Origin: a virus
Virus record (IMG/VR): IMGVR_UViG_3300042731_007944
Coordinates: 32,001 to 96,000 of that record
Strand: one strand, 5' to 3'
DNA: 64,000 nt
Numbering within the stretch: the first letter of the stretch is position 1; every line of letters starts with the position of its first letter. The notes beneath the pieces are model-generated. The model saw only the letters and a program-made list of their open reading frames with translations, was not told the origin of the DNA and did no database searches. Made by a program: the position numbers and the translations under genes. This document shows positions 3,322 to 61,278 of this stretch, in pieces.

Positions 3322-4546
3322 TTTTGAGACCTCCAATAGATTCGAGATAGTCTAAAATCTCAGATGTCTTCTCAGCGACATACGCATCATACAAGCCAGG
3401 ATCGGGATAGCCTTCCGGGAACTCGATCTTGACGTTGCCTTCCCCCTTCCGGTTTTCCGCCCCAAGTTTTCCGGATTGCTGGAAGAGAGACAGCATCTTG
3501 CCGATACAGGATCGTTCCAATTCTGTCGCATGGTCGAGGATATCAATGCCGCCATCTAAGACCGTCCCTTGCATCAGACATTCCGTATTCGCGATCATCT
3601 GGGCGCTTTTCTGCCCATCAACCCGGCCTTCATAATCGTCTTTTCGCGTCAAGAATTCCCAGGTAAACAGACTGGCTGCATTCAGATCGCCGGTATTCCA
3701 CTCTTGACAGCGAGGCTTAAAATCTAAATTATCAAACCGGCGCGGAACCGTTCGATTGCCTAATGCTGTGCCGAAAATCGACAACGGCAGGACCATGTCT
3801 CGAAATTTGTGAAGGCCCGTGGTGCGCACGGCCCCTGACCCGCTGCCAAGTTCTTTTGACAGGGCTTTGGCTTCCTGACTGTTTTCTTCCAGCTTGCCCC
3901 CGCTAAAGAGGGCGTAATAGAACCACTCGGAATACGGAGGGTTACTATGACTGGGTTGCAAGCCTAATGCCTGCGTCCAATTCCACGCTAAGAGGCGGCG
4001 ACAGTTTCCACGAATGGCATTGGCCGCATAGACGGGAAGGACTAAGATTTGTCCGGTCGTGCTTCGGCATTCCTGCCTCCGGTATAAGGTCGAATTTCCG
4101 GCCTTTTTGTCGGCCCCGTGCGCCAGCGGCGAAAGACAGGTGATCACCATCGGCAGATTTGGCGTACAGCCCGGCATGGCGGTTCCCATCTCACCCACGT
4201 CCGGGATCGTCATATCTTTTAATGCGTTATCAAAGTCTTCTTCAGTTTTCAGGGAACAACAGATCATACTCGCAACCCGTGGGTATGATCGCAGCCAGGA
4301 TAACACGCCCTGACTCTCCGAGGCGTTCACTACTGTCAGAAAATCAGCAACGGTCTTGCCTCCGATATATTCCAGTTCAACATTGACGCTTCCGGCCAGC
4401 CGTTCAATAAACCCTAACAATGACTGTTGTGTTCCGGCCTTTACGATCTGGTCGGTGTAGTAATCAGCAAACCCGCGATGGAGTTTGATGTTGGATGCGC
4501 GGGAAATCGCCCGCATCATTGACATCGTTGCGTGTAATGTACTCAT
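3299..4546 (-). CDS. csf2: type IV Csf2 (Cas7 RAMP) with N-terminal helical Cas11-like domain
   Basis: ITCLSPLAHG, LPVYAANAIRG..RRL, LFSGGKL, LSIFGT, Gly-rich LGAENRKGEG loop; about 120-aa N-terminal extension. Confidence 0.8.
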   Translation of the reverse strand: MSTLHATMSMMRAISRASNIKLHRGFADYYTDQIVKAGTQQSLLGFIERLAGSVNVELEYIGGKTVADFLTVVNASESQGVLSWLRSYPRVASMICCSLKTEEDFDNALKDMTIPDVGEMGTAMPGCTPNLPMVITCLSPLAHGADKKAGNSTLYRRQECRSTTGQILVLPVYAANAIRGNCRRLLAWNWTQALGLQPSHSNPPYSEWFYYALFSGGKLEENSQEAKALSKELGSGSGAVRTTGLHKFRDMVLPLSIFGTALGNRTVPRRFDNLDFKPRCQEWNTGDLNAASLFTWEFLTRKDDYEGRVDGQKSAQMIANTECLMQGTVLDGGIDILDHATELERSCIGKMLSLFQQSGKLGAENRKGEGNVKIEFPEGYPDPGLYDAYVAEKTSEILDYLESIGGLKNASLFAN

Positions 4547-4992
4547 AATAATTTTTCCTTTCGCAGCCGACATAATTTAATCCGACACGCCAGGCGGCTG
4601 CGACCTTCCGGGCGTATTCCGTTTTTCACGAGTTCACGTTCTTGCGGGGTCCAGGTGGTATGTTCCACCGGGTTCCCGTGATGCTTGCGCGTCTGCATCA
4701 CAAGCAGACAATCTTCCAGGTCTTTGAGCGAGTGCCGCCAGTACCACCATTTCTGCCACCCTCTGCGTCGCGCCCCGCGCCGACCTTTGAGCCACCCCTT
4801 TTTCCGCCAGACATGGACGGTAGATCGGTCAACGTGCATCAGATCCGCGATATCCTGCGTGGAGAGCTTTCGCCGGGTGTAGTCTCGCGGTAAGCGCTGT
4901 CGAAAATTCGCCGGATAAAACAGGTGATCCGGCGTGCCCACATTGCACGGAATGCCCATTGCGTGTGAGACGCCTTCCTGGTACGCCGTCAT
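4543..4992 (-). CDS. HTH DNA-binding protein (excisionase/MerR-like HTH)
   Basis: LSTQDIADLMHVDRSTVHVWRKKGWL; overlaps csf2 start. Confidence 0.6.
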   Translation of the reverse strand: MTAYQEGVSHAMGIPCNVGTPDHLFYPANFRQRLPRDYTRRKLSTQDIADLMHVDRSTVHVWRKKGWLKGRRGARRRGWQKWWYWRHSLKDLEDCLLVMQTRKHHGNPVEHTTWTPQERELVKNGIRPEGRSRLACRIKLCRLRKEKLL

Positions 4993-5180
4993 GTTTCCTG
5001 TTCAAACTCCCGCAACAGCGCTTTCCTGACGCGCTCCGGGCCATCCTCCTCTGTTAAAATGTGCTGTTTCAATTCAGGCGGTATGCGGACGGTGTAGTTC
5101 ACCATTGCTTCGTCATAGATCGGCGGACGTCCCGATCCGCCAGCGTGTCCTTTTGTGCCGCGACTGCCCTTTCCGCCCAT
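4989..5180 (-). CDS. small ribbon-helix-helix-like regulator, first gene of the type IV operon
   Basis: GRPP..MVNYTVRIPPELK; ATG lies 6 nt after the -10 box (leaderless). Confidence 0.5.
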   Translation of the reverse strand: MGGKGSRGTKGHAGGSGRPPIYDEAMVNYTVRIPPELKQHILTEEDGPERVRKALLREFEQET

Positions 5181-5186
5181 ATCCAG

Positions 5187-5227
5187 AGGCTAGATCGGGT
5201 TTCTAATTTTGTCAAGCAGAATTAGAA
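5187..5227 (-). promoter_or_regulatory. sigma70 promoter of the type IV operon with overlapping inverted repeat
   Basis: TTGACA(5215-5210)-17 bp-TAGCCT; TTCTAATT (5201-5208) and AATTAGAA (5220-5227) flank the -35 box. Confidence 0.55.
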
Positions 5228-5255
5228 AAAAAGGCCCGAAGCGAGAACTTCGGGC
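5226..5255 (-). terminator. intrinsic terminator
   Basis: GCCCGAAG-loop-CTTCGGGC followed by a T-run on the minus strand. Confidence 0.7.
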
Positions 5256-5262
5256 ACGCTGG

Positions 5263-5634
5263 CTAGAGATTGTAATGTAGCGTCACCGTGTTGCAGCCAT
5301 CAAAATCAAACTGCAATAATTTCTGCACATCGCCCTCACTCGTCAAGACCCATTCTCCAGGCGCAAGCTCAAACACTTGCGATTTATCGTGCTGCACATA
5401 GTGCTGGCACCAGGAGACTAATTCTTCCGTTGACGGGTCGCCAGAGGGATTAATAATCACAATATCTTCTTGTTGAATGATTAACGGTGACTCAACATTA
5501 GAACCGTGATATTTCAAGAAATACAACGTGCCTCGCCGTTGGATATAGCCCTCCAGCCGATCCGTCGTAATATTTTCTCCAGATGCCATTGACAGCACGG
5601 CCTGCACAAACTCATGTGCTGGTACAGTTTTCAT
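5263..5634 (-). CDS. hypothetical protein
   Basis: ORF from MKTVPAH with GGAG RBS, overlapping the upstream stop. Confidence 0.55.
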   Translation of the reverse strand: MKTVPAHEFVQAVLSMASGENITTDRLEGYIQRRGTLYFLKYHGSNVESPLIIQQEDIVIINPSGDPSTEELVSWCQHYVQHDKSQVFELAPGEWVLTSEGDVQKLLQFDFDGCNTVTLHYNL

Positions 5635-5894
5635 GGCGTTTTCTCCTTTTTTTTCTTCGCGTCCCGCCGTGCCTTTGCCCGCAATTGCGCGGCTCGGCGC
5701 TGGCAGTACCGTGAGCAATATTTTTTCTGCTTCAGATCCCTGGCGTTCGTGATCTCGAAGAGTTTCCCGCATTCACTGAACGCACAGTGGCGCGTGACTA
5801 ACAATTCCGGTTTCTGGTTTAACACGGGAACCGCCGCCCGAAAGACGGTGTACCCCCGCGCTTGCAGGAATTGAATGGCGTCGGCTTCCGTCAT
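5631..5894 (-). CDS. small Cys-rich (C..C / KYCS..C) zinc-binding protein
   Basis: CAFSECGKLF...KKYCSRYCQ; coupled by ATGA overlaps. Confidence 0.6.
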   Translation of the reverse strand: MTEADAIQFLQARGYTVFRAAVPVLNQKPELLVTRHCAFSECGKLFEITNARDLKQKKYCSRYCQRRAAQLRAKARRDAKKKKEKTP

Positions 5895-6508
5895 CGTTGC
5901 GCCTCCTTCGAGCGCAACTCGTCCAGAAACGCCAGCGCCGCGTCGGGTGGAATTTCCCGAAATTTTCCGACCTTTTCCGACCGCAACAGGTCGCGCTGAA
6001 TCCGGCCTCGAATCAGCGACAACATCCGATCCGGATCGGTTTCGCCCGTGACGGAAATCGCCGCCTGCGCCAATTCCTCAATCGAATACGGCGCGGTGCG
6101 CTGCGAAACGACCACTTGCACCTCCTCCGGCAGATCGGCCAGATCCTCGACCCAAATAATCGGCTGCCCGACGCCGGGATACGCCTCATCCAGCCAGGTA
6201 GACGGCAGAAAATCAGGAACGTCAACGTCTTCCTTGAGAATCCGGACACCCCAATTCCCACCGTAGACGAGATACCCGTCCGCCGGATCGCCCGTGGTGC
6301 TCAGGGCCACGCCGACCCGTGCATGCACGACACGCACAGGGCAGACCGGCTGCCCGACGAGATCGGTCAGACCGATGACTGTGTATTGATCGCCGTCCTC
6401 GCCAAATGGCAACAGCAGGCTGTCACCTAACCAGGTCGGCGAGAGTTCGTTGACGGTCATGAGCGGCATCCCGCCGCAATTACTCGACTTTTTGACGTAC
6501 AATTGCAT
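5891..6508 (-). CDS. hypothetical protein with C-terminal HTH-like region (start may be 6460)
   Basis: YSIEELAQ...IRGRIQRDLLRSEKVGK. Confidence 0.55.
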   Translation of the reverse strand: MQLYVKKSSNCGGMPLMTVNELSPTWLGDSLLLPFGEDGDQYTVIGLTDLVGQPVCPVRVVHARVGVALSTTGDPADGYLVYGGNWGVRILKEDVDVPDFLPSTWLDEAYPGVGQPIIWVEDLADLPEEVQVVVSQRTAPYSIEELAQAAISVTGETDPDRMLSLIRGRIQRDLLRSEKVGKFREIPPDAALAFLDELRSKEAQR

Positions 6509-6523
6509 AAGATAAACCCTTCT

Positions 6524-6602
6524 TCAGGCCCAACCGGTTCTATTCGCATCTGCTGGCGAATGGTGTCCCATTCTTCATGCGAATAGAACCGGTTGGGCCT
6601 GA
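6524..6602. repeat. perfect 26-bp inverted repeat with 27-nt spacer
   Basis: TCAGGCCCAACCGGTTCTATTCGCAT (6524-6549) and its exact reverse complement (6577-6602). Confidence 0.95.
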
Positions 6603-8858: not shown

Positions 8859-11399
8859 TCAGCGTAGCCCGTATTTCTTCAGCTTTGTATGCAGCGTCTG
8901 GCGGACAATACCCAGCCGTTTCGCCGCTTCCGTCACATTCCCATGACACGCCATAAGCACTCGCTGAATATATTGCTTCTCTGTCTGTTCGAGTTGCTCC
9001 GCCAACGAAAATCGCGCGGTATCCGATAATGCCAGATCCGGCGCAATGGACAGATCGCCGGTGGCAAAAAACGAGTCGAGGACCCGGTAGAGTTCCCGGA
9101 CATTGCCCGGCCAATCATAGTCAAACAGCAGCGTCATGACCTCTGCCGGAAGAAATTCTCGCTCTCGCCATTGCGGATGGTGGCGAATATAGTGCTCAAC
9201 GAGCAGTGGCAAGTCGTCTTTGCGCTTGCGCAAGGCAGGCAAGCGTATTTGTACGCCCTGGAGCCGATACCAGAGATCCTTCCGGAAAGCCCCGTCTGCT
9301 ATGTCTCGCATGAGATCCCGGTTGGTGGCCGCAAGAATTCTGAGATCAACCGAAATCACGCGATCCGATCCGACCGGGCGAAATGACAACGTATCGATTA
9401 CGCGTAACAATTTTTGTTGCGACTCCAGCGACAAGTTTTCAATTTCATCCAGAAAGAGCGTGCCGCCGTTGGCCTGGATCAAGTACCCATCCCGATGAGA
9501 CATTGCGCCCGTAAACGCGCCTTTCCGGTGGCCGAAAAACGCGCTTTCAAACAAGTTCGGTGAGATCGCCCCGCAATCCACCTCAATAAATGCCCTGGCA
9601 CTCCGAGGACTGCGTTGATGAATTTCACGGGCCACCAATTCTTTGCCCGTTCCGGTTTCGCCAACCAAGACGACCGAAATGTCCGAGGCCGCTGTCTGCG
9701 AAATGCGCGAATACACCCGCTGCATTAATGGGTGTTTCCCGATTAATGCGCCGTACCGAAATCGGGTCTGCTGGGCATCTTCAAGTTGCGTTTCCAGCGC
9801 CTGCTGTCGCTGTCGTTCTTCTGTGATGTCACGCCCGAAGGCAAAAAACTCACAGACCTTCCCGCTTTTGAGGATGATCGGCGTAATGGACCACTCGATC
9901 CACTTGTTGTCCTGGTGGACAATAAGCGGTGTCTGCTTGTTGATCGCAAGGATCTGACGAAAGATTTTTTCACTCGGGACAAACGCCCGAAACGAGATCG
10001 GAAGATCCGGCCATCGGTTGCGAATCGACGCATTCACTTCTGACAGCACTCCGTTCGGCAGAAACGCACAGAAAAAATTTTTTTCGTGTTCAAGCATCGC
10101 TATATGTCGTTTTGCGTTCAGTTCGGCGTCTTTGCGCAAGAGCCGCTCTTGCGTCCAGGCGTGCTGCAACCGGGCCGCCATCGCATTAAATGCCCGGCTG
10201 AGACGTCCGATCTCCTCAATTCGGGCCGTGTTGATATCTGCCCGGATGGACAACGATCCCCCGTGGTGCGCTTGATCCATCGTCTGACACAGTGCTTCGA
10301 GAGGCCGGGCCAGGGACCGGCTGATCCGCCAGGAGAGTGCCGCGATGCCAGCCGATCCAAGCACCAGAATGCCGGTCACAACGCCAAACAGACGCCACAG
10401 CACGATCCGTTCTTCATCCCGTGGCTGGATCAGCAGAAACGCCCCACCAGCAAACCCAACCTTGCTGAGATACGCCGCCCGCGTTGTGCGTATGTTCGGG
10501 GCCGTAGGAATCGCTGAAAGATCAACGTCAAGAGGGGCGTCAAGGGAACTCAGTCGTCGTATTCCGTCGATCATTAATGTGACATGGACATCGCCCATTC
10601 GCCGGAACCGGTGCATGTCGAGATCGCTCACGGTCCGCAGTTCCCGCACGATCCCGAACCGCTCATGATTATACGTAATTGGCAGGCAATACTCGAAAAA
10701 GATGCCATCCGGGAAGGAGACGATTTCAAACCGGCCGTCTGTTGGAATCTCATCATCAAAGATGGTCGGCACGCTGGCAGGCGTCGGGATCGCGCGGATG
10801 TCTGTTTCTTGCTCGACGTATACATACCAGCGATCCTCCGGATGCATCTGTGTAAAGACTCCACCCTCGATAAAGGGTAAATAGACGCCGCCCGACAGGA
10901 TATCCGGATCGTCAGGATCGCGCTGAGCCATTCCGACCAGTACGCCCTCTCGATCATACACGGCGGCGTTTTGCGCCCCGACGAGGCGAAAATAATTCAC
11001 CAATTCCAGCGCAAAGAAATAATAATACGACTTCGTCCGATCAAAGCGCTCCATCGGGAGGAGGTCTTCGCTTTGCAACCACAGATCAAGCATATAGAGC
11101 CGATTCCGAATCGCTGGCTCAGCCTGCTTCATCTGATTGAGATAGATGATTTGCATGAGCCGCAAATCATCGTGAATGATGGCCGCCGCGCGTTCCACAT
11201 GCTGTTGAAAATCATGCCGTACCTGCCAGAGGAAAACGGCATAATAGCCGGCCGCAACGATCAGGCATCCGACGAGCGTAAATTGAAAAAAGGAAAGAAA
11301 AAACCGTTTGCGTAAGGTCATTAGAGAAACGGGGCGTCGAGCGAGTGCAAACAGGCAACCCGGCTGACTCGACACGAGTCCCGTGGCTTTCCGTCCCAT
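8859..11399 (-). CDS. membrane-anchored sigma54-dependent enhancer-binding activator (TM-sensor-TM-HAMP-PAS-like-AAA+-Fis HTH)
   Basis: GETGTGKE, GAFTGA, GGTLFLDEI, WPGNVREL, C-terminal GNVTEAAKRLGI; HAMP EIGRLSRAFNAM. Confidence 0.92.
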   Translation of the reverse strand: MGRKATGLVSSQPGCLFALARRPVSLMTLRKRFFLSFFQFTLVGCLIVAAGYYAVFLWQVRHDFQQHVERAAAIIHDDLRLMQIIYLNQMKQAEPAIRNRLYMLDLWLQSEDLLPMERFDRTKSYYYFFALELVNYFRLVGAQNAAVYDREGVLVGMAQRDPDDPDILSGGVYLPFIEGGVFTQMHPEDRWYVYVEQETDIRAIPTPASVPTIFDDEIPTDGRFEIVSFPDGIFFEYCLPITYNHERFGIVRELRTVSDLDMHRFRRMGDVHVTLMIDGIRRLSSLDAPLDVDLSAIPTAPNIRTTRAAYLSKVGFAGGAFLLIQPRDEERIVLWRLFGVVTGILVLGSAGIAALSWRISRSLARPLEALCQTMDQAHHGGSLSIRADINTARIEEIGRLSRAFNAMAARLQHAWTQERLLRKDAELNAKRHIAMLEHEKNFFCAFLPNGVLSEVNASIRNRWPDLPISFRAFVPSEKIFRQILAINKQTPLIVHQDNKWIEWSITPIILKSGKVCEFFAFGRDITEERQRQQALETQLEDAQQTRFRYGALIGKHPLMQRVYSRISQTAASDISVVLVGETGTGKELVAREIHQRSPRSARAFIEVDCGAISPNLFESAFFGHRKGAFTGAMSHRDGYLIQANGGTLFLDEIENLSLESQQKLLRVIDTLSFRPVGSDRVISVDLRILAATNRDLMRDIADGAFRKDLWYRLQGVQIRLPALRKRKDDLPLLVEHYIRHHPQWREREFLPAEVMTLLFDYDWPGNVRELYRVLDSFFATGDLSIAPDLALSDTARFSLAEQLEQTEKQYIQRVLMACHGNVTEAAKRLGIVRQTLHTKLKKYGLR

Positions 11400-11494
11400 C
11401 CTCGCGGATGGTTTGGCATTTTTCTGTGTTCAGTAGGTACTCTATACGATAGTGCGTGGGGAGAAAAATGTCAAATCGGTCTAGCAAAAAAAAT

Positions 11495-11878
11495 GTCCAC
11501 ACCGATCCGAATCTGTGGACGGCGTGGACGCGACTAGCCAGCCGTGGACATCAGATCCCGGATGAATAAACCAGCATACATTTTCTGCTGGCGTTCTGTG
11601 GACAAGGGGCGTTCGGCTTCCAGGACTTTCCGGAAGGTGCTACGATCCATTCCGCACCATTCTGCGATCTGGGCATCGGCCAGTGTCGGGGTTGCTCGCT
11701 TCAAGGCTGCGATCTTGTGTCGCACCAGATCGAGTGTCACATCTTCTGGTCTTTGGATCTCAAAGGCAAACACCTTTCGTTCATCCGAGAGGCCATCAAA
11801 CAGATCGTCTGCGTCCGTGTGGACGCCCGTGGACGCCGGTATCTGGGGCGTGGACGCTGCTTGTCCACGTGTGGACGC
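11495..11878. repeat. cluster of GTGGAC(GC) direct repeats
   Basis: GTGGAC at 11515, 11524, 11544, 11598, 11819, 11829, 11850, 11871 (five are GTGGACGC); inverted copies at 11495 and 11863. Confidence 0.8.
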
Positions 11879-13144
11879 CTCCACCACAAGCCGCATATCG
11901 TCATCTTTGACTTCAGGTATTTTTGCCAGAATCGGATCATCACACACTGGCCAAAACAACACATCACCTGGCTCTTTGACAGACGTTTTCAACAGGCGGA
12001 TGGCGTCCTTGTCTTGCAACAAGAGGTTCGCCTGTTTTGGTTTGATCCGATGGATATAGGCGCTCGTCAGAGTATCACGAACGGTTGAGTCGCCGCCGGT
12101 ACGTGAGGCCAGCCACGTCTGTGAGGACGCGAGCATGTAGACCTGACACTTCCGGCCTTCCGTGCTAATCCGTTCCATCGTATACGCGATGTGTGATCCC
12201 ATTGTCGTTTTTGACAGAAACGCGAGTTCATCAATCACTAGAACGACTGGTGTCGTGTCCAGATCGATTTGTTTCAAACGGTTGTTTATGATCGTTTCCA
12301 CGGCGGTCAACATAGTGGTCATATCATCCTTATACGTCGCCATCTGCATCAATCCGGCTTCCCAGAGCGGTTTTGTTTTGAACCCGAGTGAATTCGGGTG
12401 CGGATAATGCGGATCGATGCCGTAGAACCGGACGCCTTCCGTTATAATCCCGCTGCCAAGCAAAAAGAGCATGGTAGAGGTTTTCCCGCTGCCGGATTCC
12501 CCGGCAATGGCGGCGGAATAAATATTGAGAAACGATCCACGACGTGGCTCGCCGTGCTCAAATCCGAGAATCATGGGTTCATCCGGGGCGATCTCGCCTC
12601 GCCGTAAGAGATGGGCAAACGTTGGCACACGTTTTGGCCCGGTGAGCATCGCCGGTGCAGCCTGTTCGATCTGTTTCAGTCCGGCTTTATTGGCGGTTCC
12701 GGCAATCTCTTTGTAAATTTTGACTGCGGCTTCAGCCCCCTGTAACGTCCCTTCATTGACCGTCCGTGTTTGTTCAGCCGCCATCAACCCCATTGAGAGC
12801 GGTACGGCGATGCCGAGATCTTTTTTACGCACAGGGATTTCTTTATGTTCGCCAAGTTTGATGGTGTGGACAGAGGCTTTTTCTCGCTCACACAATCCGC
12901 GATTAAGGATATAATACGATCCTAAAAGCAACAGCATAAGTGGTCCTATAATAGCAATCGAGCGTAAGACCGCATTCAGCACATGGGTGTTGTCAACCTT
13001 TTCTTGCGCTTCTGCGATCAAAATTTCCGGGTGCGCGTCATAGAGGCGATAATTTTTCCACACGCTAAAGACGGTATTGGCTCCGAAGGCGAGCGCGATA
13101 GCAATAAATAATCCGATGATCACGCTAATTTGTTGTTTTTTCAT
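11534..13144 (-). CDS. FtsK/SpoIIIE (TraB-like) membrane ATPase with C-terminal HTH
   Basis: Two N-terminal TM segments, Walker A GESGSGKTS, Walker B LVIDE, EGRK..ASSQ, C-terminal QIAEWCGMDRSTFRKVL. Confidence 0.75.
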   Translation of the reverse strand: MKKQQISVIIGLFIAIALAFGANTVFSVWKNYRLYDAHPEILIAEAQEKVDNTHVLNAVLRSIAIIGPLMLLLLGSYYILNRGLCEREKASVHTIKLGEHKEIPVRKKDLGIAVPLSMGLMAAEQTRTVNEGTLQGAEAAVKIYKEIAGTANKAGLKQIEQAAPAMLTGPKRVPTFAHLLRRGEIAPDEPMILGFEHGEPRRGSFLNIYSAAIAGESGSGKTSTMLFLLGSGIITEGVRFYGIDPHYPHPNSLGFKTKPLWEAGLMQMATYKDDMTTMLTAVETIINNRLKQIDLDTTPVVLVIDELAFLSKTTMGSHIAYTMERISTEGRKCQVYMLASSQTWLASRTGGDSTVRDTLTSAYIHRIKPKQANLLLQDKDAIRLLKTSVKEPGDVLFWPVCDDPILAKIPEVKDDDMRLVVEASTRGQAASTPQIPASTGVHTDADDLFDGLSDERKVFAFEIQRPEDVTLDLVRHKIAALKRATPTLADAQIAEWCGMDRSTFRKVLEAERPLSTERQQKMYAGLFIRDLMSTAG

Positions 13145-13850
13145 CCCGATTGATTCTCCAGAATATGACAATTCCGATAATGGCGAGACCAAAGGCGATC
13201 ACGCCCTGAACGACATCACGCAAGATTCGTTGATCGCGTTGCTGTTTGGCTAGCGTGAGATTCACAGGCGCTTTTTTCGTGGGGAGAACAGATGTCGCCT
13301 GTTCCGGCGTCGGTGTCGGATCAATCGTGCGTATCTCTGGCAGGGGAACCTGGATCGCGGCGACCTGCGCCACAGGCTCAGGGGTAACGACTTCCGGCGT
13401 TTCCACCACCACATCAGCAACCGGTGCTAGTTCTGACCGTGACACGGACGTCTGGATTGGCGGGGTCTGCCATGTAGAGAGCATGGCGGCATAATACGGA
13501 TCGCCCATCCGTGACTGCTGGCGAGGATAAAAATATTGGACCGTCCGGCGCTGTGGCAACGGCAGATACTGCGCGCCATTCCACTTCCCATAACTGCGAT
13601 AGATCGGCTGTGTCTCTGTATAGGCAGAGACCTGTTGCGCCTGCTGTTGAAACTCTGGGTGATCGTCCATGTTCCATTCGGCATGGCCGGTTACGGTCAG
13701 GGTTTTTTGGGCTTCGAGTTGCGCCGCATATTGCAGCAGCGCCCATTCGTCATCGGTAAAATCATCCCGGCTGACGACGCCGTCATTATAGGCGAACGCC
13801 GGGCTTACAATAAACAATAGACTGACAAGTAGACTGACAAATACTTTCAT
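13125..13850 (-). CDS. exported, membrane-anchored protein
   Basis: Signal peptide (…SPAFA), Pro/Thr-rich linker, C-terminal TM; overlaps the FtsK-like gene start. Confidence 0.65.
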   Translation of the reverse strand: MKVFVSLLVSLLFIVSPAFAYNDGVVSRDDFTDDEWALLQYAAQLEAQKTLTVTGHAEWNMDDHPEFQQQAQQVSAYTETQPIYRSYGKWNGAQYLPLPQRRTVQYFYPRQQSRMGDPYYAAMLSTWQTPPIQTSVSRSELAPVADVVVETPEVVTPEPVAQVAAIQVPLPEIRTIDPTPTPEQATSVLPTKKAPVNLTLAKQQRDQRILRDVVQGVIAFGLAIIGIVIFWRINRDEKTTN

Positions 13851-14486: not shown

Positions 14487-15263
14487 CTATTGTTCCACTA
14501 CTTGAAAGGTTATGTCAGGACGCTGCCCGATCTGTTTTTCGAGTTCATCCTGAATGATTGTCGTATAATAGTCTTGCAACCAGTAAACAAAGTCTTCAGA
14601 AGGAACCCCTATCACAACACCTCTTCCGTTCTGCTCCAGCAGGCGTGTAGGCCGCAACCATGTGTCAAACGATGGACGGTTGATCGTTTTTTGAAGAGAA
14701 ATTAAAATGGTGTCCCATAAATTATACTTCTTACAACCTTGCTTCTTATTCTTGTTAGTATTCAGATTTTCTGAATGTAGATTTTCTGAACGGCTACCCC
14801 CTTCTTTCAGATTTTCTGAACGTAGGTCAATCGCCTGTTTTTCTAGTACGTTCAGATTTTCTGAATGTAGCTTTAGATATCCACCTCGATAGAATTTCCG
14901 TTTGTCCGTCCCTTGGTGCTTTTTTCCAAGAGGAATAGACGTAGGGTCTTCGGGAGATGGATTGTGCTCTGGTGTCGCATACACATAATAACACCACTCG
15001 CTAATTTGATCTGAAACCCTTTTCGGTTGATATGTCGCATATCCGAAATGTCGTAATTCTTTTAAGGCGCTATAGACGACTGTTTTTCCATCCACAGATC
15101 TCGAGACAAGATCCGTGACGTTCATTTCCCATCCGGCGGCTTGCGCTAGAACATATGACAAGATTCCTTTTGCGGCCCAGGAGAGTCTTGAGTCATGATC
15201 AAGGGCGGTTTTGTCAAAGAGCGCAAAATTCTTTTCGTAATGAGCATTTTTGATTGTCGGCAT
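14487..15263 (-). CDS. phage replication initiator (N-terminal wHTH, C-terminal DnaA domain I-like)
   Basis: RLSWAAKGILSYVL...DGKTVVYSALKEL..FGY; C-terminal LWDTIL..LQ...SFDTWL.PT (DnaA_N); internal iterons. Confidence 0.8.
   Translation of the reverse strand: MPTIKNAHYEKNFALFDKTALDHDSRLSWAAKGILSYVLAQAAGWEMNVTDLVSRSVDGKTVVYSALKELRHFGYATYQPKRVSDQISEWCYYVYATPEHNPSPEDPTSIPLGKKHQGTDKRKFYRGGYLKLHSENLNVLEKQAIDLRSENLKEGGSRSENLHSENLNTNKNKKQGCKKYNLWDTILISLQKTINRPSFDTWLRPTRLLEQNGRGVVIGVPSEDFVYWLQDYYTTIIQDELEKQIGQRPDITFQVVEQ
14761..14870. repeat. palindromic iterons, likely replication origin
   Basis: TTCAGATTTTCTGAAYGTAG at 14761, 14806, 14851 plus a partial copy at about 14777-14792, inside the initiator gene as in lambda O. 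Confidence 0.8.
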
Positions 15264-15401
15264 CTTTTCTGCTTGACAAAACGAGGGGGAGGCAGGATGA
15301 TACTCACATACACAAGGGGTAAGCCTACCCTGGGGGCTTCTGTTTATCGACGTAATGGCGGGCAAACCATAGCAGATATTCAGAGGCCCTCTCTCTTTTG
15401 T

Positions 15402-15705: not shown

Positions 15706-16413
15706 TTAATTTTGCTCGCTATTTTCCTGCTCGCTATCTTCCGGGCGTTCTGGCGATGGCAACAACAGCGCTTTCAATTCGTCAAGTAATGCCTTCCGGC
15801 GCTTACCCTGCAAGAATCCTTGGTGATGTTCGAGGTCCGCGATGAGGCGTGTCACGTCGCGCTGTTGGTGGACTGCTTCGATCTCTTGACGTATCGCTTC
15901 TCGTTGCCGAGCTTCATACTCCTTGCGAATATCGTCCGGGCTTTTCCCATCAGGCAACATCTTTATTTCGCCTTCCAGGGCCTCATTTCTCCTAATCAAA
16001 TCGTAAATCTCTTTCTCTTTCTCCTGGAGATCCTTGAGGTGTTGGTCTTTTAATTGCGATATTTTTTCATGCAGATCGAAAAGCTGCTGGATATAGTGTG
16101 GAGTTTGAAGGTTGTTTGAAAGTGTTTGTGGTGGCGTGTCTTGCGCTGTTGGTGTTGGCGGCGGCTGCGGGAATTGATCCGGAAATGCCTGCTCTAGCCT
16201 GAGCCGAATTTCCGGCATGGATAAGCCCTGTTCTTTCATCTGTTTAATGCGGTCAAAAATTGGGAAGACCGCTTCGTCGAGCAGGATCTTATTCTTATTG
16301 CCGTGTTTGGTGTGCTGTTTGAACAAGCCAGGGAACTGTTTGAGGCATTCCCGGAGAAACTGATATTTCAAGCCGGTTAAAGACTCCAGATCTTTTATGG
16401 AATACATGGGCAT
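15706..16413 (-). CDS. MerR-like HTH plus coiled-coil protein
   Basis: YSIKDLESLTGLKYQFLR...MKEQGLSMPEIR; long coiled coil; AAGGAGG RBS. Confidence 0.65.
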   Translation of the reverse strand: MPMYSIKDLESLTGLKYQFLRECLKQFPGLFKQHTKHGNKNKILLDEAVFPIFDRIKQMKEQGLSMPEIRLRLEQAFPDQFPQPPPTPTAQDTPPQTLSNNLQTPHYIQQLFDLHEKISQLKDQHLKDLQEKEKEIYDLIRRNEALEGEIKMLPDGKSPDDIRKEYEARQREAIRQEIEAVHQQRDVTRLIADLEHHQGFLQGKRRKALLDELKALLLPSPERPEDSEQENSEQN

Positions 16414-16560
16414 CCCCTCCTTATGAAACTGTCTAAAAACACGGTACGATTTTTCTGCCATCCCGTCAAGCGATTTTTCTTCAGGGAAATGAAATGCGAT
16501 CTTTTTTCGCACGAAGGTTCATTTTTTCTGCTTGCTGTCTGTTTTACGTTCTAACTCGTT

Positions 16561-16600: not shown

Positions 16601-16718
16601 TTTTTAGCGATTTTTTGATTGACAAAGGGTTTCCGTCTATGGTTTGGTGTTTCAGAATGATGCGTGTTTGATGCTATTCAATATCTTTTTAGCAACTATA
16701 GTTTTACAAGGAGATGTT

Positions 16719-17816
16719 ATGGAAGTTATTCTTGCATGTGATACAGGGACATCAGAAGATAAAGGGGCCATCATGCCCCTCGGATCAGACTTTCATCCGA
16801 AACGGATTATCTCACATTCCTTCCCTACGTTGGGAAAAATTGGGGAATTTACCGCGCTACCAGGGGATCACTTAGGCGTCTTGCGAGAGCCACATCCCTA
16901 TCAAGGCGTCTACAAGGCCCGCGCCCGTGAATTTGGAGCGCGTCTGCATCGAAATTCAAACATCTATAATGATCCCGTCTATCTGCTCTATGTCTTTGGC
17001 ATGGTGGCTGATCTGCTGGAAAAAGCCCATATTACAGAGAAGCAAATAGACGTGATGTTTGCGGGCTTTGGGTTCCCGGTCTCACATAAAGAAGGACAGG
17101 CCGGGCAACTCAGATCCACGTTGCTGCATCGCGGAAAACCGTGGACAGTACAAAAACAAGACGGACGGGCCTATTCTGTCACGTTCCACAATGTTGTGTG
17201 TGAGACGCAACCGTATTATATGGTCGTTGACCAGATTTTCACCTGGCAGCCGAACGGGACGCTGTCGGCTGAGCGTGGCAAACAGATTTTTGCCAACGGG
17301 CCGCTATTATTCGGGGATCTTGGGTCAAACTCGAATGATTGGGAATGGGTTCCGTTGTCGCTCGCAAACTCCGAGAACGCCTGTTCGATGGGCGGGACGT
17401 TCAATTTTTTTCCGAAACTGGCAAAGTTGGCCTATGAAAAAACCCATCAGGATTTAACAGAGTACGATCTCATGTATCAGGTGTTTCGGAAACGCCAAAT
17501 CACCTTAAACGGTGTGACGTATGACTTTTCTCAGGAAATCCCGTTGCTCTATCAAGAGGCCGTCAAAGAGTTGGAGGGCGATATTGATCTGTTTTTGCGA
17601 ACCCTGAAAGAAAAGCCTCAGCCTTATGCGATGCGATTAGGCGGGGGTGGTGTCATTAATGGGGAATCGTATTTTCGACAGATCTTTTCCTCAAAATTCC
17701 CTGGCGGAGTGCAGATTGTTGAAGATGACCACGGGAAACCGGCCCCGGTCTGGTCTATCGTGCGTGGAATGGTGAAGAAAAGCGTCATTGAGGCGCAAAA
17801 GGCAGAGGTACTATAG
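16719..17816 (+). CDS. ParM/StbA-family actin-like partition ATPase
   Basis: Phosphate-1 ACDTGTSEDK, GFGFPV, phosphate-2 GDLGSNSND, adenosine LGGGG; AGGAG RBS. Confidence 0.75.
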   Translation: MEVILACDTGTSEDKGAIMPLGSDFHPKRIISHSFPTLGKIGEFTALPGDHLGVLREPHPYQGVYKARAREFGARLHRNSNIYNDPVYLLYVFGMVADLLEKAHITEKQIDVMFAGFGFPVSHKEGQAGQLRSTLLHRGKPWTVQKQDGRAYSVTFHNVVCETQPYYMVVDQIFTWQPNGTLSAERGKQIFANGPLLFGDLGSNSNDWEWVPLSLANSENACSMGGTFNFFPKLAKLAYEKTHQDLTEYDLMYQVFRKRQITLNGVTYDFSQEIPLLYQEAVKELEGDIDLFLRTLKEKPQPYAMRLGGGGVINGESYFRQIFSSKFPGGVQIVEDDHGKPAPVWSIVRGMVKKSVIEAQKAEVL

Positions 17817-18503: not shown

Positions 18504-18779
18504 ATGACCGCTTTCGATCTCTACTGTGAATTGCGACAGCATGACATGAGGGCGCTCTATCATGGAAAGCCCTGTCAAGTGCTGACAATGCAATACGAAA
18601 CACCGAATGAGTTGGGCATCAGCCAAGAGATGCATGACGCTTTACCGGAAGGCCGTACCACGACACTCAGGGTGCGCTATTTCAACGAATTTTTGCAGGA
18701 AGATGACGAGGCGTTGCTGTTTCTGGATGAGTTTGTGAACTGCTCCCGGACATCAATGCCCGGGCATCTATGCCGCTGA
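18504..18779 (+). CDS. hypothetical protein whose last codons were replaced by the IS605 insertion
   Basis: Joining 18734 to 20482 gives ...LDEF-INPL-stop. Confidence 0.55.
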   Translation: MTAFDLYCELRQHDMRALYHGKPCQVLTMQYETPNELGISQEMHDALPEGRTTTLRVRYFNEFLQEDDEALLFLDEFVNCSRTSMPGHLCR

Positions 18780-19934
18780 CGCGGCAAGCGTCGCCAGCCC
18801 GCGACGCAATAAAACGAGAGAGGACACGTAGTCTCGATTTTCGACCAGCCCGCATTTCGGGCATTCATGCACTCGTTGCGACAGTGTTTTCCGTACTGGC
18901 TCCCCACAGACGCATACTTGTGAACTGCCTCTCGGGTTGGTCGGGATTCGACGTTTCCCTTGCTCTTTGACTTTATAGGCAACGATATTCAGAAATAGGC
19001 CCCAGGCCGCGTCTGAAATAGAGAGGTGCAAGCCTGACGTATGACACGCACCGTTCGGCAGATACGTCCCAGTATCATCCTGTTTTGCCTTTGGACGCCT
19101 GAGCATATTTCGGATATTCAGGTTTTCGTGAATGAGATAATCCGTTTGTTTTAAGAGCGCGTTTGCTGTCTTGTGTAAAAAATCCAACCGCTGACACTTG
19201 ACGCGATAATGGGTTTTTTGGATGGCCTTCAAAAGTTTGTACCATTGCGGAGAGCGTTTCGGAGCCTTTGCAAATCGCCGTTGAAGACGTTTCAGGCGTT
19301 GCTGTGATTTTCGGAAGGCTTTGGGATAGACGCAATGAAACCCGTTTGAGGCATAGACATAATCATTCAACCCTAAGTCAATCGCTAGAGGTGGCAAGGC
19401 GTCTTTAGGCTCTACTGATACTTCTAATTCAGTAGAGAAAGACGCAAACCACTTGCCTCCATCTTGTAAAATCGTCAGAGTTTTGATTGTGGCCTCTTCC
19501 GGGATCGGGCGATGATACACACACTTCATGTTGCCAACTTTTGGTACATAGAATGAGTCAGAGGGACGTTGCGTATATTGCGGATAAGTAATTGACGACC
19601 ACCTGCCACGTTTTTTAAACTTCGGGAACCCAGGCACGTCGCCCTGTTTAACTCGGCGGAAGAAGGCGTCAAAGGCGTTATCCAGACGGCGTAAGACATC
19701 TTGAAGCACCTGAGAATGGACACCCTTAAACCACGGACGGGCTTTTTTAAGGAGAGGAAGTTGGCGTTTTTGTTCATACCAGGACACAGACCGGCCTTCC
19801 TGCTCATAGACGTCCATACGTTCTTTGAGTGACCAGTTGTACACATAGCGGCACATCGAAAATTGATTCTTCAGGTTTGTCTGTTGCGCTTTTGTCGGAT
19901 AAATCCTATATTTATACGCCTTACGAAGGATCAT
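18768..19934 (-). CDS. tnpB: TnpB RNA-guided endonuclease
   Basis: KAYKYRIYP, RuvC AIDLG / HENL / NRD, Zn finger CVCG...CPKCG. Confidence 0.93.
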   Translation of the reverse strand: MILRKAYKYRIYPTKAQQTNLKNQFSMCRYVYNWSLKERMDVYEQEGRSVSWYEQKRQLPLLKKARPWFKGVHSQVLQDVLRRLDNAFDAFFRRVKQGDVPGFPKFKKRGRWSSITYPQYTQRPSDSFYVPKVGNMKCVYHRPIPEEATIKTLTILQDGGKWFASFSTELEVSVEPKDALPPLAIDLGLNDYVYASNGFHCVYPKAFRKSQQRLKRLQRRFAKAPKRSPQWYKLLKAIQKTHYRVKCQRLDFLHKTANALLKQTDYLIHENLNIRNMLRRPKAKQDDTGTYLPNGACHTSGLHLSISDAAWGLFLNIVAYKVKEQGKRRIPTNPRGSSQVCVCGEPVRKTLSQRVHECPKCGLVENRDYVSSLVLLRRGLATLAASAA

Positions 19935-20341
19935 TTGGTTTTTTGATCGGCAATATACCGCGTGACCGTCTCTTCTGAAACGTGTCCGATAGTTTCCACA
20001 TACGTTGAGGGGTTCCACAGATGCCCATTCCAGAGACGTTTCTGTAACTCTGGAAATTCAAGCAAGAGGCGTCTCGCAGAAATGCCCTTCATTAATTTAT
20101 ACATATGCGAGGCAGAGTATTTTGGATGCCCAGACACAAACACATGTACATGATCCGGCATGACCTCCAGTGATTGGATGACAAATCCTTTTTCTTTTGC
20201 GATCTCATGTAACAGTGTCTTGAGTCTGGTATCAATGCCGTTGACCAATACCTTGCGACGATACTTGACCGTCCAAACAATGTGATAGTTCGCATTATAC
20301 ACGACCGTTCTGGCATAGGTAAACCGTTCCTTGTCTCGCAT
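19931..20341 (-). CDS. tnpA: IS200-type HUH (Y1) transposase
   Basis: YHIVWTVKYRR, MPDHVH, KGISAR, LWNPS, YI..Q. Confidence 0.95.
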   Translation of the reverse strand: MRDKERFTYARTVVYNANYHIVWTVKYRRKVLVNGIDTRLKTLLHEIAKEKGFVIQSLEVMPDHVHVFVSGHPKYSASHMYKLMKGISARRLLLEFPELQKRLWNGHLWNPSTYVETIGHVSEETVTRYIADQKTK

Positions 20342-59439: not shown

Positions 59440-61278
59440 TTATCGATGACGAAAGCGGTCATACGCGCTGCGGGCCGGTGGTTGATTCCGGCGCGGTTCC
59501 TGGCTCTGGGCGGGTTTCTTGCGCGGGCGCTTCTGTAATTGTGTATACAGCATGGTCATGGCGTCAGCCGTATCAATTTTATACTCGATCTCCATCAGCT
59601 TATGGGTATTCGTTCCGGGTATCCAGCCACACCATTGCGTGACAAGCAAATCCTGCTGCGAGTGCCCGCTCATGACATGAATGCGTTGCTGTTCAAGCTC
59701 CGGACGGATGGCGAGCAGGCGTAAATCCTTATTCCCTCCGGGCGGGACCTCTTTTACGGGCAATGGATCCCAGAAGTCTGCGCGGGACGGGTGTCTGTGT
59801 TGCGCATTTTCAGCCCCCTGCTGAAAAAACGACCGGCCTAACCCTTTCGCCGACACAATCGCTTCGAGGAAGACAGAGGCCGTGCGATCCTGGGTGCGAA
59901 ACTGCCGCCAATAGATCTCATGCGCGACGGAGAGCAGCTTTTCCGGTGTGGCCTGATCGCTCCAGACCTCCAGAATATACAAATCCCGTGTTGTCAGGTT
60001 AAACGCCCCTGCGACAATCGCCATCGGATCCGTGCCTTCTTTCGGCTCACCACTGGTATCAATTGCCAACCCGAACCGATAGAGCCCACGTGGTAACGTG
60101 CCGTCATACGGGACAAACCACTCACGGAACACCTTTTGAAAGGCCGCGTCTGATGTGACATGTTGGCGCTCTTGCATGAAGGCCCCAGTGTCCTCTGCCG
60201 CGTCAAACACAAAAAACGCCATCGAATAGACCTCCGGCCAATAACTCTGTAACGCGCCATCTCTTCCGAGAAACCCGTCTTCGTCGCCTTCGTCCGGGAT
60301 CGCAAAAAACGGCGCGTATTTCTCCCGGTTCGCGCGGATATATGCCCAGCGCTCCCGGTCAGTAATTTCCAACTCCTCCGGGGAAATCTCCTCGGCGTCA
60401 AGTTGCGCCTCTTTCTCTCGTTCGATCTGGTCGCAAAAGTCGCTGATGTGACGGGCGTCTTCTGAGATCACGGCCATTAACTGTTTGATCCGATCCGGAT
60501 GTCCATTGATCGCCGGAATCTTAATGACCTTGACCATCGGAGACTGCGACAGTTGCCACGCGGCGTCCGTCTGGCTGATCGAGGTCCCTAAATAGCACCG
60601 TCGTAAAATGCCTTCACCAGGCAGTGGCCCGGCCTTTGCCAGATCCTTTGTGATCATGTCATAGATAAACTTTGTCTCTGACCGGCTTTTGGCGTTCTTC
60701 AGGTCAACGAGATCATTACAGATGGCGAGCGTGATCCGGTGTTCATGATGGGTTGAACCACGGCTTTTCAATTGGTTCAACCCCATAAATCGAATGATGC
60801 AGCCGTTTGTAAAATTCAGTTCGCCGCTGGACGGCGACCAGGGCGTAGATGGGCGCACGTCCGGAAAGTCGTGAATGACCTTTTGATTTTCCTCAAACAC
60901 CTTCACGAATTTCTGGACAATCGTTCCGGCCAGATCGCCATCATGCTCGATCTGGACGATATACGGCTCCAGGCTATAACAGACGGCATGGAGGGCGATA
61001 AGAAACAGGATCGTGCTTTTGCCTGCCCCTCTCGGCAAAAGGACTAAGACGATCCTTGATGTCCGGGTTTGCATGGCCTGAAACATCAAGAAATGATGCG
61101 GGGCATACTCGGCAGTCACATAGTCCGGAATGTAGGTTTTTCCGAAGAGAGGGATGTCGCGTTCGCATGCCAGACGATCAGGGAGGAAGATGACGTCTTT
61201 CCCGGTAGGGACCGCTACGGTGAAATGAACAGCACGACGAGCGTTTTCTTGATAGCGGCGTTGACGGCGTTTCAGCAT
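59440..61278 (-). CDS. terL: terminase large subunit
   Basis: Walker A PRGAGKST, ICNDL, LAIDTS...D..AI, DTADA nuclease motifs. Confidence 0.88.
   Translation of the reverse strand: MLKRRQRRYQENARRAVHFTVAVPTGKDVIFLPDRLACERDIPLFGKTYIPDYVTAEYAPHHFLMFQAMQTRTSRIVLVLLPRGAGKSTILFLIALHAVCYSLEPYIVQIEHDGDLAGTIVQKFVKVFEENQKVIHDFPDVRPSTPWSPSSGELNFTNGCIIRFMGLNQLKSRGSTHHEHRITLAICNDLVDLKNAKSRSETKFIYDMITKDLAKAGPLPGEGILRRCYLGTSISQTDAAWQLSQSPMVKVIKIPAINGHPDRIKQLMAVISEDARHISDFCDQIEREKEAQLDAEEISPEELEITDRERWAYIRANREKYAPFFAIPDEGDEDGFLGRDGALQSYWPEVYSMAFFVFDAAEDTGAFMQERQHVTSDAAFQKVFREWFVPYDGTLPRGLYRFGLAIDTSGEPKEGTDPMAIVAGAFNLTTRDLYILEVWSDQATPEKLLSVAHEIYWRQFRTQDRTASVFLEAIVSAKGLGRSFFQQGAENAQHRHPSRADFWDPLPVKEVPPGGNKDLRLLAIRPELEQQRIHVMSGHSQQDLLVTQWCGWIPGTNTHKLMEIEYKIDTADAMTMLYTQLQKRPRKKPAQSQEPRRNQPPARSAYDRFRHR

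Follow-up and report, generated by a model that had tools for sequence, protein, structure and literature searches.

The stretch of DNA analysed here (the window; 64,000 nucleotides) comprises bases 32001-96000 of one linear 104,987-bp IMG/VR record, IMGVR_UViG_3300042731_007944, which originates from wetland metagenomes and has a CheckV completeness of 89%. The contig is a tailed phage on which a large terminase (TerL), portal, protease, major head protein and tape measure are recognisable. The subject of this report is a minus-strand gene for a predicted membrane-anchored DNA pump, P0003, together with a dense array of the hexamer GTGGAC that occupies the 3' part of the same gene and the terminator behind it (Table 1). 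The pump gene is the last of a minus-strand operon consisting of a MerR-like gene, a small open reading frame (ORF), the replication gene rep, two small ORFs, the gene for a 241-aa membrane protein (P0002) and the pump itself. Coordinates refer to the window unless contig positions are specified; homologous loci and proteins are designated by L and P numbers.

Table 1. Features of the pump locus and its surroundings (window coordinates; TM, transmembrane; HTH, helix-turn-helix; pLDDT, predicted local distance difference test).
Feature	Position	Strand	Details
Predicted FtsK/TcpA-clade ATPase gene (P0003)	11534-13144	-	536 aa from ATG
Two N-terminal TM helices of P0003	12890-13144	-	residues ~1-85; hydropathy; model helices 2-35, 41-90
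Predicted RecA-like motor of P0003	11855-12640	-	residues 169-430; invariant columns, profile and fold matches
Predicted C-terminal XRE-type HTH domain of P0003	11537-11737	-	residues ~470-536; four helices; pLDDT 93-97
Array part 1: four direct GCGTCCAC (gene sense) and one inverted copy (11863-11868)	11819-11878	-	codes residues 423-442
Two more motif copies	11598-11603, 11544-11549		within HTH-coding DNA
Array part 2: GCGTCCAC, CCGTCCAC, then inverted GTGGAC	11487-11531	-	after the stop codon; hairpin and T8
Terminator hairpin and T8	11487-11531	-	directly after the pump stop codon
Sigma-70-like promoter TTGACA-17-TATCGT	11446-11474	-	-35 box 11469-11474
Cyclic di-GMP (c-di-GMP-I-GGC) riboswitch	11350-11426	-	Rfam RF03167, 60.2 bits
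Membrane (TM-HAMP) sigma-54 activator gene	8859-11399	-	downstream of promoter and riboswitch
Upstream partner gene (P0002)	13125-13850	-	241 aa; TM segments 3-21, 213-231
rep: DnaD-like/DnaA_N replication initiator gene	14487-15365	-	
Iterons TTCAGATTTTCTGAA(T/C)G	14761-14874	-	4-5 copies, spacing 15/30/45 bp; inside rep
MerR-like gene	15706-16512	-	operon head
TerL gene	59440-61278		

The first-pass annotation of this sequence had described the product of the pump gene as a membrane-anchored FtsK-family ATPase with a C-terminal HTH, and this description is backed by the TM helices, the fold of the motor and the matches of the HTH domain. The two TM helices are common to most of the pump family and are followed by a conserved juxtamembrane domain and then by the motor, which carries the motifs GESGSGKT (Walker A), DPHYPHP, VLVIDE (Walker B), ASSQTW and RDTLTS. 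The N terminus and the motor are on the cytoplasmic side. An AlphaFold model of P0003 reached a pLDDT of 85.6, with a disordered linker at residues 432-462 (pLDDT <50). At the level of sequence the match is borderline: the Pfam family FtsK_SpoIIIE (PF01580) scored below threshold on P0003 (14.7 bits against a cut-off of 24, E 0.02) and was matched by 12 of 70 relatives. A profile built from those 70 relatives returned a HerA/DUF87 protein as its best match in the PDB (4e-9), followed by EccC (3e-8) and FtsK (3e-7), with TcpA chains also present. The nearest clusters in the ESM Atlas of language-model predictions were viral FtsK/DUF87 proteins of 436-566 aa, and PHROG 1358 matched with an E of 6.5e-4.

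Structural comparison gave a clearer ranking. Foldseek searches with the P0003 model returned the FtsK motor (E 3e-10) and TcpA as best matches. In VIA-align the highest scores were those of TcpA (Z 24.9; PDB 6o1x; root-mean-square deviation 2.5 over 239 residues) and FtsK (Z 24.4; 3.1 over 244 residues), followed by EssC/EccC (Z 22-23), HerA (Z 19.6), VirB4 (Z 18.9) and TrwB (Z 16.6). Because this ranking places them about 5 Z units above HerA and VirB4, the modelled motor is assigned to the FtsK/TcpA/EccC branch. This result also bears on a reading in terms of defence or exclusion, in which P0003 would be a prophage membrane ATPase that expels or blocks related incoming DNA bearing the motif, or a HerA-like defence ATPase. 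Such a role would agree with the DUF87/HerA protein found by the sequence profile and with weak PADLOC matches around the P-loop (mad8 4e-6, HerA 1e-5), although the latter span just 40-80 residues. The grouping with HerA/VirB4 defence ATPases that the first-pass annotation had held out as an adverse outcome was not what the fold comparison returned (FtsK/TcpA at Z 24-25 against Z 19). Moreover, no nuclease (NurA), Sir2 or DUF4297 partner was found among the neighbouring genes, and an element carrying its own site array would be exposed to its own exclusion. Defence is therefore considered very unlikely.

The C-terminal part of the family profile matched HipB, SinR and XRE proteins in the PDB, and the P0003 domain modelled alone gave C.Esp1396I, C.AhdI, HipB and HigA as its best matches. 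The Pfam family HTH_3 (PF01381) was found in 23 of the 70 relatives; P0003 itself had no Pfam HTH match at E <= 0.1. From these models, the domain is predicted to be an all-helical HTH of the XRE/Cro-C1 type and not a winged helix.

The motif GTGGAC was present on the plus strand at 11515, 11524, 11544, 11598, 11819, 11829, 11850 and 11871, that is, eight copies in 362 bp, and in inverted orientation at 11495 and 11863, to give ten copies within 11495-11878. Across the contig, 10 of the 47 GTGGAC/GTCCAC sites fall within these 382 bp where 0.17 would be expected (Poisson P ~5e-15), while the overall frequency of the motif is normal, and no 400-bp interval of the 105-kb contig shows clustering as strong for any other hexamer. 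The first-pass annotation had counted eight copies in the same orientation, five of them as GTGGACGC, at the 3' end of the gene; that count is confirmed and the two inverted copies are added to it. The genome-wide count of GTGGACGC that it had proposed showed that the whole 104,987-bp contig holds five plus-strand copies, all of them inside the array. Seven of the ten copies are coding, 70-340 bp before the stop codon, and three are non-coding. Part 1 of the array is in DNA coding for the last residues of the motor and for the disordered linker, and its four GCGTCCAC copies lie 342, 321, 300 and 290 bp before the stop, so that their spacing of 21, 21 and 10 bp puts them on one face of the helix.

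The relationship between these repeats and the encoded peptide was examined at the codon level. Of the four direct copies in part 1, three encode A-S-T, and the fourth, in a different frame, encodes G-V-H. All five S-T dipeptides of the 3' part are written TCC-AC(R), each time preceded by a codon with G in third position; elsewhere in P0003, the four remaining S-T dipeptides use TCT, AGC, TCA and AGC, and TCC makes up 17% of the serine codons in 14 other genes. The ASTP/ASTG peptide, to which the repeats might have been due according to the first-pass annotation, does not explain them, because two frames are used, the codons are fixed, and one inverted and three non-coding copies are present. 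On this evidence the constraint acts on the DNA and not on the protein. Natural variation is uninformative on the constraint, since the DNA in the wetland read runs was identical to the contig, with zero variants.

Similar arrays were sought in relatives of the pump gene. The family, which has no name in public sources, comprises 965 representatives at 50% identity that reach E <= 0.001, and has a conserved signature of its own (DPHYPHP, PKQANLLLQD) and an XRE tail. No tblastn match to P0003 was found in 50,697 INPHARED phage records or 72,556 PLSDB plasmid records, and scans of IMG/VR with the relatives P0080 and P0115 found nothing. For 37 non-redundant homolog loci, a zone reaching from 480 bp upstream of the stop codon to 260 bp downstream of it was searched for at least five copies of one hexamer within 150 bp. 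Arrays were present in 10 of the 37 loci; of 747 equally sized control zones, 1.6% reached this mark. The test proposed in the first-pass annotation, whether homologs carry repeat clusters of their own, thus spoke for the analogy with TraB/clt. The repeated words differ between loci: GTTGACC (L013, L023), GTTAACC/GTGAAC (L014), GGTTGAC (L027), GTTGAG (L019), TGTAAGA in ten copies (L022), TGAACA in eight (L017) and CTTCGTG in eight (L009); L020, with four copies of GGTCAAT, falls just under the threshold.

The homolog arrays occupy linker-coding DNA, span the stop codon or follow closely behind it; six are wholly linker-coding and those of L017 and L022 straddle the stop. Often the copies fall into two sets of opposite orientation, with a spacing of ~11-12 or 22 bp. 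Read in frame, the first such set of L013 and of L023 encodes Val-Asn and the second Val-Asp, a pattern that a peptide repeat would not produce and an inverted repeat at the DNA level would. One of the ten array loci, L016, is doubtful because its CTGGCG cluster, shared with the near-copy L008, is in a conserved part of the motor-coding DNA. Metagenome contigs are the source of all ten loci with arrays; L008, the only copy from a viral collection, has four copies and so stays below threshold. The array-bearing copies form deep, long branches of the family tree (a quick tree with SH-aLRT, an approximate likelihood-ratio test, as sole support). In the recognition helix of the HTH, seven loci with GTNNAC-type words share the pattern x-[FIL]-[SR]-[KRE]-[VIY]-[LT], from which three loci with words of other types deviate; this covariation of motif and helix is suggestive and is confounded by phylogeny.

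The array of L009 has an architecture of its own. Its eight CTTCGTG copies occupy positions 1790-1945 of that locus, 17-172 bp past the stop, and form a nested dyad in wholly non-coding DNA; each strand carries three copies at 8-bp spacing plus one, in mirrored arrangement, and a long cruciform would be possible.

It could be that such arrays have no function and are products of slippage in a low-complexity linker, aided by chance. The linkers of relatives are indeed repetitive at the peptide level (ADTPATQ occurs three times in P0077), and most coding copies in the phage gene read S-T. This explanation was already disfavoured by the two frames, the inverted and non-coding copies and the fixed codon choice described above, and it sits poorly with the opposed Val-Asn and Val-Asp sets of L013 and L023, with an array wholly outside the gene in L009 and across the stop in L017 and L022, and with the excess of arrays over control zones. 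It is regarded as highly improbable.

The preferred interpretation of these data is that the pump is loaded at a cis-acting site in its own gene, the GTGGAC(G/A) array, and that the likeliest purpose of the pair is capsid-free passage of phage DNA. We give this reading a probability of roughly 0.35. It is proposed because P0003 combines a predicted DNA-reading domain on a flexible linker, a motor of the type that pumps double-stranded DNA (dsDNA) and a membrane anchor with a private array that travels with the gene. In such a mechanism, the membrane-anchored pump would bind, through its XRE-type HTH domains at the C terminus, to the 8-10 phased copies that its own gene carries in the linker-coding DNA and the terminator. 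Docking would set an FtsK-like ring on the phage's own dsDNA, which the motor would then translocate at or through the cytoplasmic membrane, possibly assisted by the co-translated bitopic membrane protein P0002. The phage genome could in this way reach a sister cell or a neighbour with no capsid involved, following the logic of TraB/clt and of the plasmid-phage pZL12. Binding by the HTH, formation of the ring, translocation and the biological purpose are what we infer here.

An array inside a gene could also be a cis-acting site for replication (an origin), packaging (pac), integration (attP arms) or methylation, or a site for another protein, in which case its position in a tolerant linker would be coincidence. 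Gene-internal arrays with other functions exist, for instance the lambda origin in gene O and P1 pac in pacA. Moreover, the rep gene of the same phage holds iterons in AT-rich DNA that codes for the linker between the DnaD-like and DnaA_N domains, and these iterons are the second-strongest hexamer cluster of the contig. They are likely, judging by this arrangement, to be the origin of replication, placed within a gene as in lambda O; cumulative GC skew showed no origin-like turning point. The iterons would thus account for the origin. TerL lies 48 kb from the array, and TerL, portal and capsid genes together 40-50 kb away, and the genes for two tyrosine recombinases (contig positions 10245-10850 and 98170-98595) are more than 30 kb distant. 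Given the iterons in rep and the remoteness of terminase and recombinases, the array is probably not a site of replication, packaging or integration. The readings as arm sites of attP, as a pac site and as a target of methylation were set aside, since the relevant genes are distant and the array travels with the pump gene, among differing neighbours in unrelated elements; the contig-wide frequency of GTGGAC is normal. Another cis-acting role is considered distinctly unlikely.

Part 2 of the array coincides with the terminator of the operon. The predicted RNA fold has a free energy of -26.4 kcal/mol (z -4.3), and none of 200 shuffled sequences was as stable. It was therefore considered whether a membrane-tethered HTH protein, or another regulator, might use the copies to control termination or read-through or the downstream promoter, or to regulate its own gene, with the copies in the linker being incidental. 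XRE-type HTH domains usually belong to transcription factors, and three copies lie at the terminator hairpin, 15-45 bp upstream of the -35 box of the next promoter. However, most of the copies are within the coding region, and the promoter region of the operon itself has none. In addition, six homolog arrays are wholly linker-coding, the downstream genes of homolog loci differ and are unrelated to one another, and an FtsK-type motor would be superfluous for a regulator. Regulation is thus unlikely. Three identical contigs from wetland metatranscriptomes, at a depth of 2-3.5, correspond to 11461-12002, that is, to the 3' part of the pump gene with the array; they could be expression or carried-over DNA.

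The first-pass annotation had also noted an exported membrane protein coupled upstream of the pump. In agreement with this, P0002 has a signal-peptide-like or TM N terminus, an extracytoplasmic part rich in P, Q and T, a C-terminal TM helix and a short tail, and the 3' end of its gene, which has a strong GGAGG ribosome site, overlaps the pump ATG by 20 nt. No homolog of P0002 was found among 5.8 billion proteins and the Atlas held no informative neighbour; its Atlas model has a pLDDT of 0.45. The genes upstream of the pump homologs in L017 and L022 encode proteins of the same topology and are likewise tightly coupled. The co-translated envelope protein, together with the clt-like layout and the occurrence of ParM in some relatives that carry the pump, favours transfer.

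The same surroundings can be read in terms of maintenance. The pump might bind the array as a centromere-like site and pump or clear episomal DNA across septa, or tether replicating DNA to the membrane, on the models of segregation by FtsK, with its FtsK-orienting polar sequences (KOPS), or by SpoIIIE, or of phi29 p16.7-like anchoring. The pump gene ends a replication operon that includes the MerR-like gene, rep with its iterons, small ORFs and the membrane protein. No ParA (CbiA) or ParM match was found on the contig, and its sole ParB_N match lies in the IbrB-like gene. Among relatives, L008 and L016 have a ParM-like gene a few genes ahead of the pump, and L017 has one nearby. Phasing at ~11 bp combined with dyad symmetry is characteristic of the arrays in plasmid centromeres, the opposed polarity of the half-arrays resembles the KOPS switch at dif, and the chromosomal paralogs described below, which stand among housekeeping genes, suggest a cellular role in DNA handling. 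On the other hand, relatives with ParM would need no second segregation device, and the second tyrosine recombinase means that the prophage may integrate, which would make partition unnecessary. FtsK-type systems are not known to serve the partition of plasmids or phages. Maintenance is a serious rival, rated less probable than not and a little below transfer. For the same reason of the second recombinase, the label of phage-plasmid given in the first-pass annotation could not be upheld, the contig being linear, 89% complete and devoid of ParA, ParM and genuine ParB matches.

Where the flanking DNA was long enough, neighbours of a plasmid or phage type were seen at several array loci, namely a rep gene homologous to that of the phage (L022) and ParM-like actin genes (L017, L016). 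The ParM/ALP-type actin genes lie a few genes from the pump homolog at 4995-5984 in L008 and at 4576-5649 in L017, and their proximity suggests that these two elements are episomal prophages; in L008 a Mu-type portal is found downstream of the pump homolog. In L020, a 969-aa Toprim/DUF927 primase-helicase with a Cch-type HTH is encoded at 3690-6599, two genes upstream of the pump homolog, which is another instance of a pump within a replication module.

Two further genes were recorded near the operon. For a 390-aa gene at 16644-17816 (+), divergent from the MerR-like/rep/pump operon, searches of Pfam, PHROGs, NCBIfam and PADLOC gave no match, and a TnpB/IS605 OrfB-type gene (HTH_OrfB_IS605, OrfB_IS605 and Cas12f1-like TNB domains) lies at 18768-20018 (-), between the early region and the tail genes.

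The family is also present on bacterial chromosomes. In the phylum of Candidatus Vecturithrix and Moduliflexus, six of nine genomes hold 2-4 chromosomal paralogs of the pump, some of them as tandem pairs ~1 kb apart behind a five-TM membrane protein (7231-12323 in L002, L035/L043 and others among L028-L047). In L002, the one locus examined for its context, the paralogs stand between genes for a CCA/polyA polymerase-type enzyme, a PHO4 phosphate transporter, PTA and an M20 peptidase. No repeat arrays were found at the Moduliflexota chromosomal paralogs in the same zone test. These paralogs seem to form a resident branch of the family that may have been domesticated. By comparison, one of 167 sampled Bacteroidota genomes carries a pump gene, and from the two counts the distribution looks mobile outside Moduliflexota and resident inside.

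The closest named relatives of P0003 are chromosomal genes of filamentous Moduliflexota, and the phage copy branches outside that clade. The suggestion that the phage might spread along a filamentous host is consequently not established. The sigma-54 activator gives no indication of the host either, its best matches being at most 45% identical, confined to the AAA+ part and drawn from mixed phyla.

Several observations weigh against a loading site that serves transfer. The chromosomal paralogs without arrays imply that the family is not intrinsically a transfer device, and in a host with a diderm envelope an inner-membrane pump acting alone would need further help to get DNA across. The link between the HTH and the motif, as read from sequence, depends on co-location and on a small recognition-helix pattern that is phylogenetically confounded, and the predicted HTH is of the XRE type instead of the winged helix of TraB and FtsK-gamma. 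The copies at +5 and +34 relative to the stop pair as the stem of the intrinsic terminator and the +14 copy is partly within it, while part 2 as a whole lies just upstream of the promoter of the riboswitch/sigma-54 operon. The module is situated in the replication and maintenance region and would fit segregation equally well; ParM-like genes accompany the pump in some relatives (L008, L017) and are lacking in others. The upstream protein P0002 is an orphan, no match to Spd or GntR (TraR) was found among the scanned neighbouring genes, and no wall-cutting partner was recognised.

Were the loading-site reading correct, movement of dsDNA without a capsid and without a type IV secretion system (T4SS) would reach beyond the actinomycetes, transfer would give the phage a second, capsid-free route of spread, and the line between phages and conjugative elements would blur. 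A wider formulation holds that a wetland phage outside the actinomycetes passes its dsDNA genome directly to neighbouring cells, that the family does likewise for mobile elements in several phyla, and that it was domesticated in filamentous Moduliflexota; this must be called speculative and is less likely to be right than wrong. Even if the purpose were segregation or anchoring, the locus would offer a directly testable protein-site pair for a large uncharacterised family. It also illustrates DNA sites hidden in linker-coding parts of genes, of which this phage has two examples, the pump array and the rep iterons.

TraB-type transfer requires one motor and one DNA site, with neither relaxase nor secretion system, and is regarded as a speciality of mycelial actinomycetes. 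The closest analogue of the phage module is the TraB/clt system of Streptomyces plasmids (pSVH1, pJV1, pIJ101, pWTY27) and of actinomycete integrative and conjugative elements. Both would employ a single membrane-associated FtsK-like ATPase with a C-terminal DNA-binding domain, and both have short repeats at the 3' end of the ATPase's own gene, adjacent genes for membrane proteins and no relaxase or T4SS. For the phage contig this last point stems from searches with Relaxase (PF03432), VirB4 (PF03135) and AAA_10 (PF12846), the three families searched, none of which matched the 89%-complete contig. The clt loci of Streptomyces are clusters of direct and inverted repeats of 7-9 bp, located next to the 3' end of tra or across it, and the C terminus of Tra binds to them (PMC3583192, PMC4447253). 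The clt of pWTY27 begins 16 bp inside traA, the product of which has two TM helices (PMC3583192), and pZL12, an experimental precedent from Streptomyces, is described as a plasmid-phage with tra-dependent transfer (PMC4487206, PMC3583192). The differences are that TraB reads its repeats with helix alpha-3 of a winged helix whereas the phage pump has a predicted XRE-type HTH, that most of the phage array is inside linker-coding DNA, and that the phage element is non-actinomycete (49% GC, relatives in Moduliflexota) and has no recognised Spd or TraR homologs. Of the TraB/clt-like module proposed in the first-pass annotation, the anatomy and the array stood, and some homologs had arrays of their own; the pump is not a member of the TraB family, in view of the sub-threshold Pfam FtsK match and, above all, the HTH, which makes the phage module an analogue because it is XRE-type and not a winged helix.

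Chromosomal FtsK with KOPS and SpoIIIE with its recognition sequences (SRS) would resemble the phage pump in motor fold, N-terminal membrane anchor and a C-terminal domain for short oriented words. They have four TM helices and a gamma winged helix, in contrast to two TM helices and no gamma in P0003, and their words are dispersed with polarity over the chromosome, whereas those of the phage are gathered in one 380-bp site at a phage-encoded gene. TcpA of the Clostridium perfringens plasmid pCW3 (PDB 6o1x) is the best structural match to the phage pump. It too has two N-terminal TM helices. Unlike the phage pump, TcpA has neither a C-terminal HTH nor a site array, and it works with a relaxosome and a T4SS-like apparatus (PMC5365140), components to which the Relaxase, VirB4 and AAA_10 searches found no counterpart on the phage contig. 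The viral FtsK/SpoIIIE-like proteins of Uroviricota (PHROG 1358 and the ESM Atlas clusters) are the nearest clusters and have no assigned function; the phage pump differs from them in having its own signature and an XRE tail.

A precedent outside the actinomycetes is TdtA of the Thermus thermophilus element ICEth1, a membrane-bound hexameric ATPase of the FtsK/HerA superfamily that pushes donor dsDNA out of the cell without a T4SS (PMC5365140), from which it follows that a lone pump can serve DNA donation in other bacteria. TdtA differs from the phage pump in being HerA-like, in being paired with a NurA nuclease and a restriction enzyme, and in having no HTH and no dedicated site array; in that system the recipient imports the DNA by means of its competence system. 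Set beside these examples, what lies at the phage locus is a clt-like anatomy with a different DNA-reading domain, on a tailed phage outside the actinomycetes.

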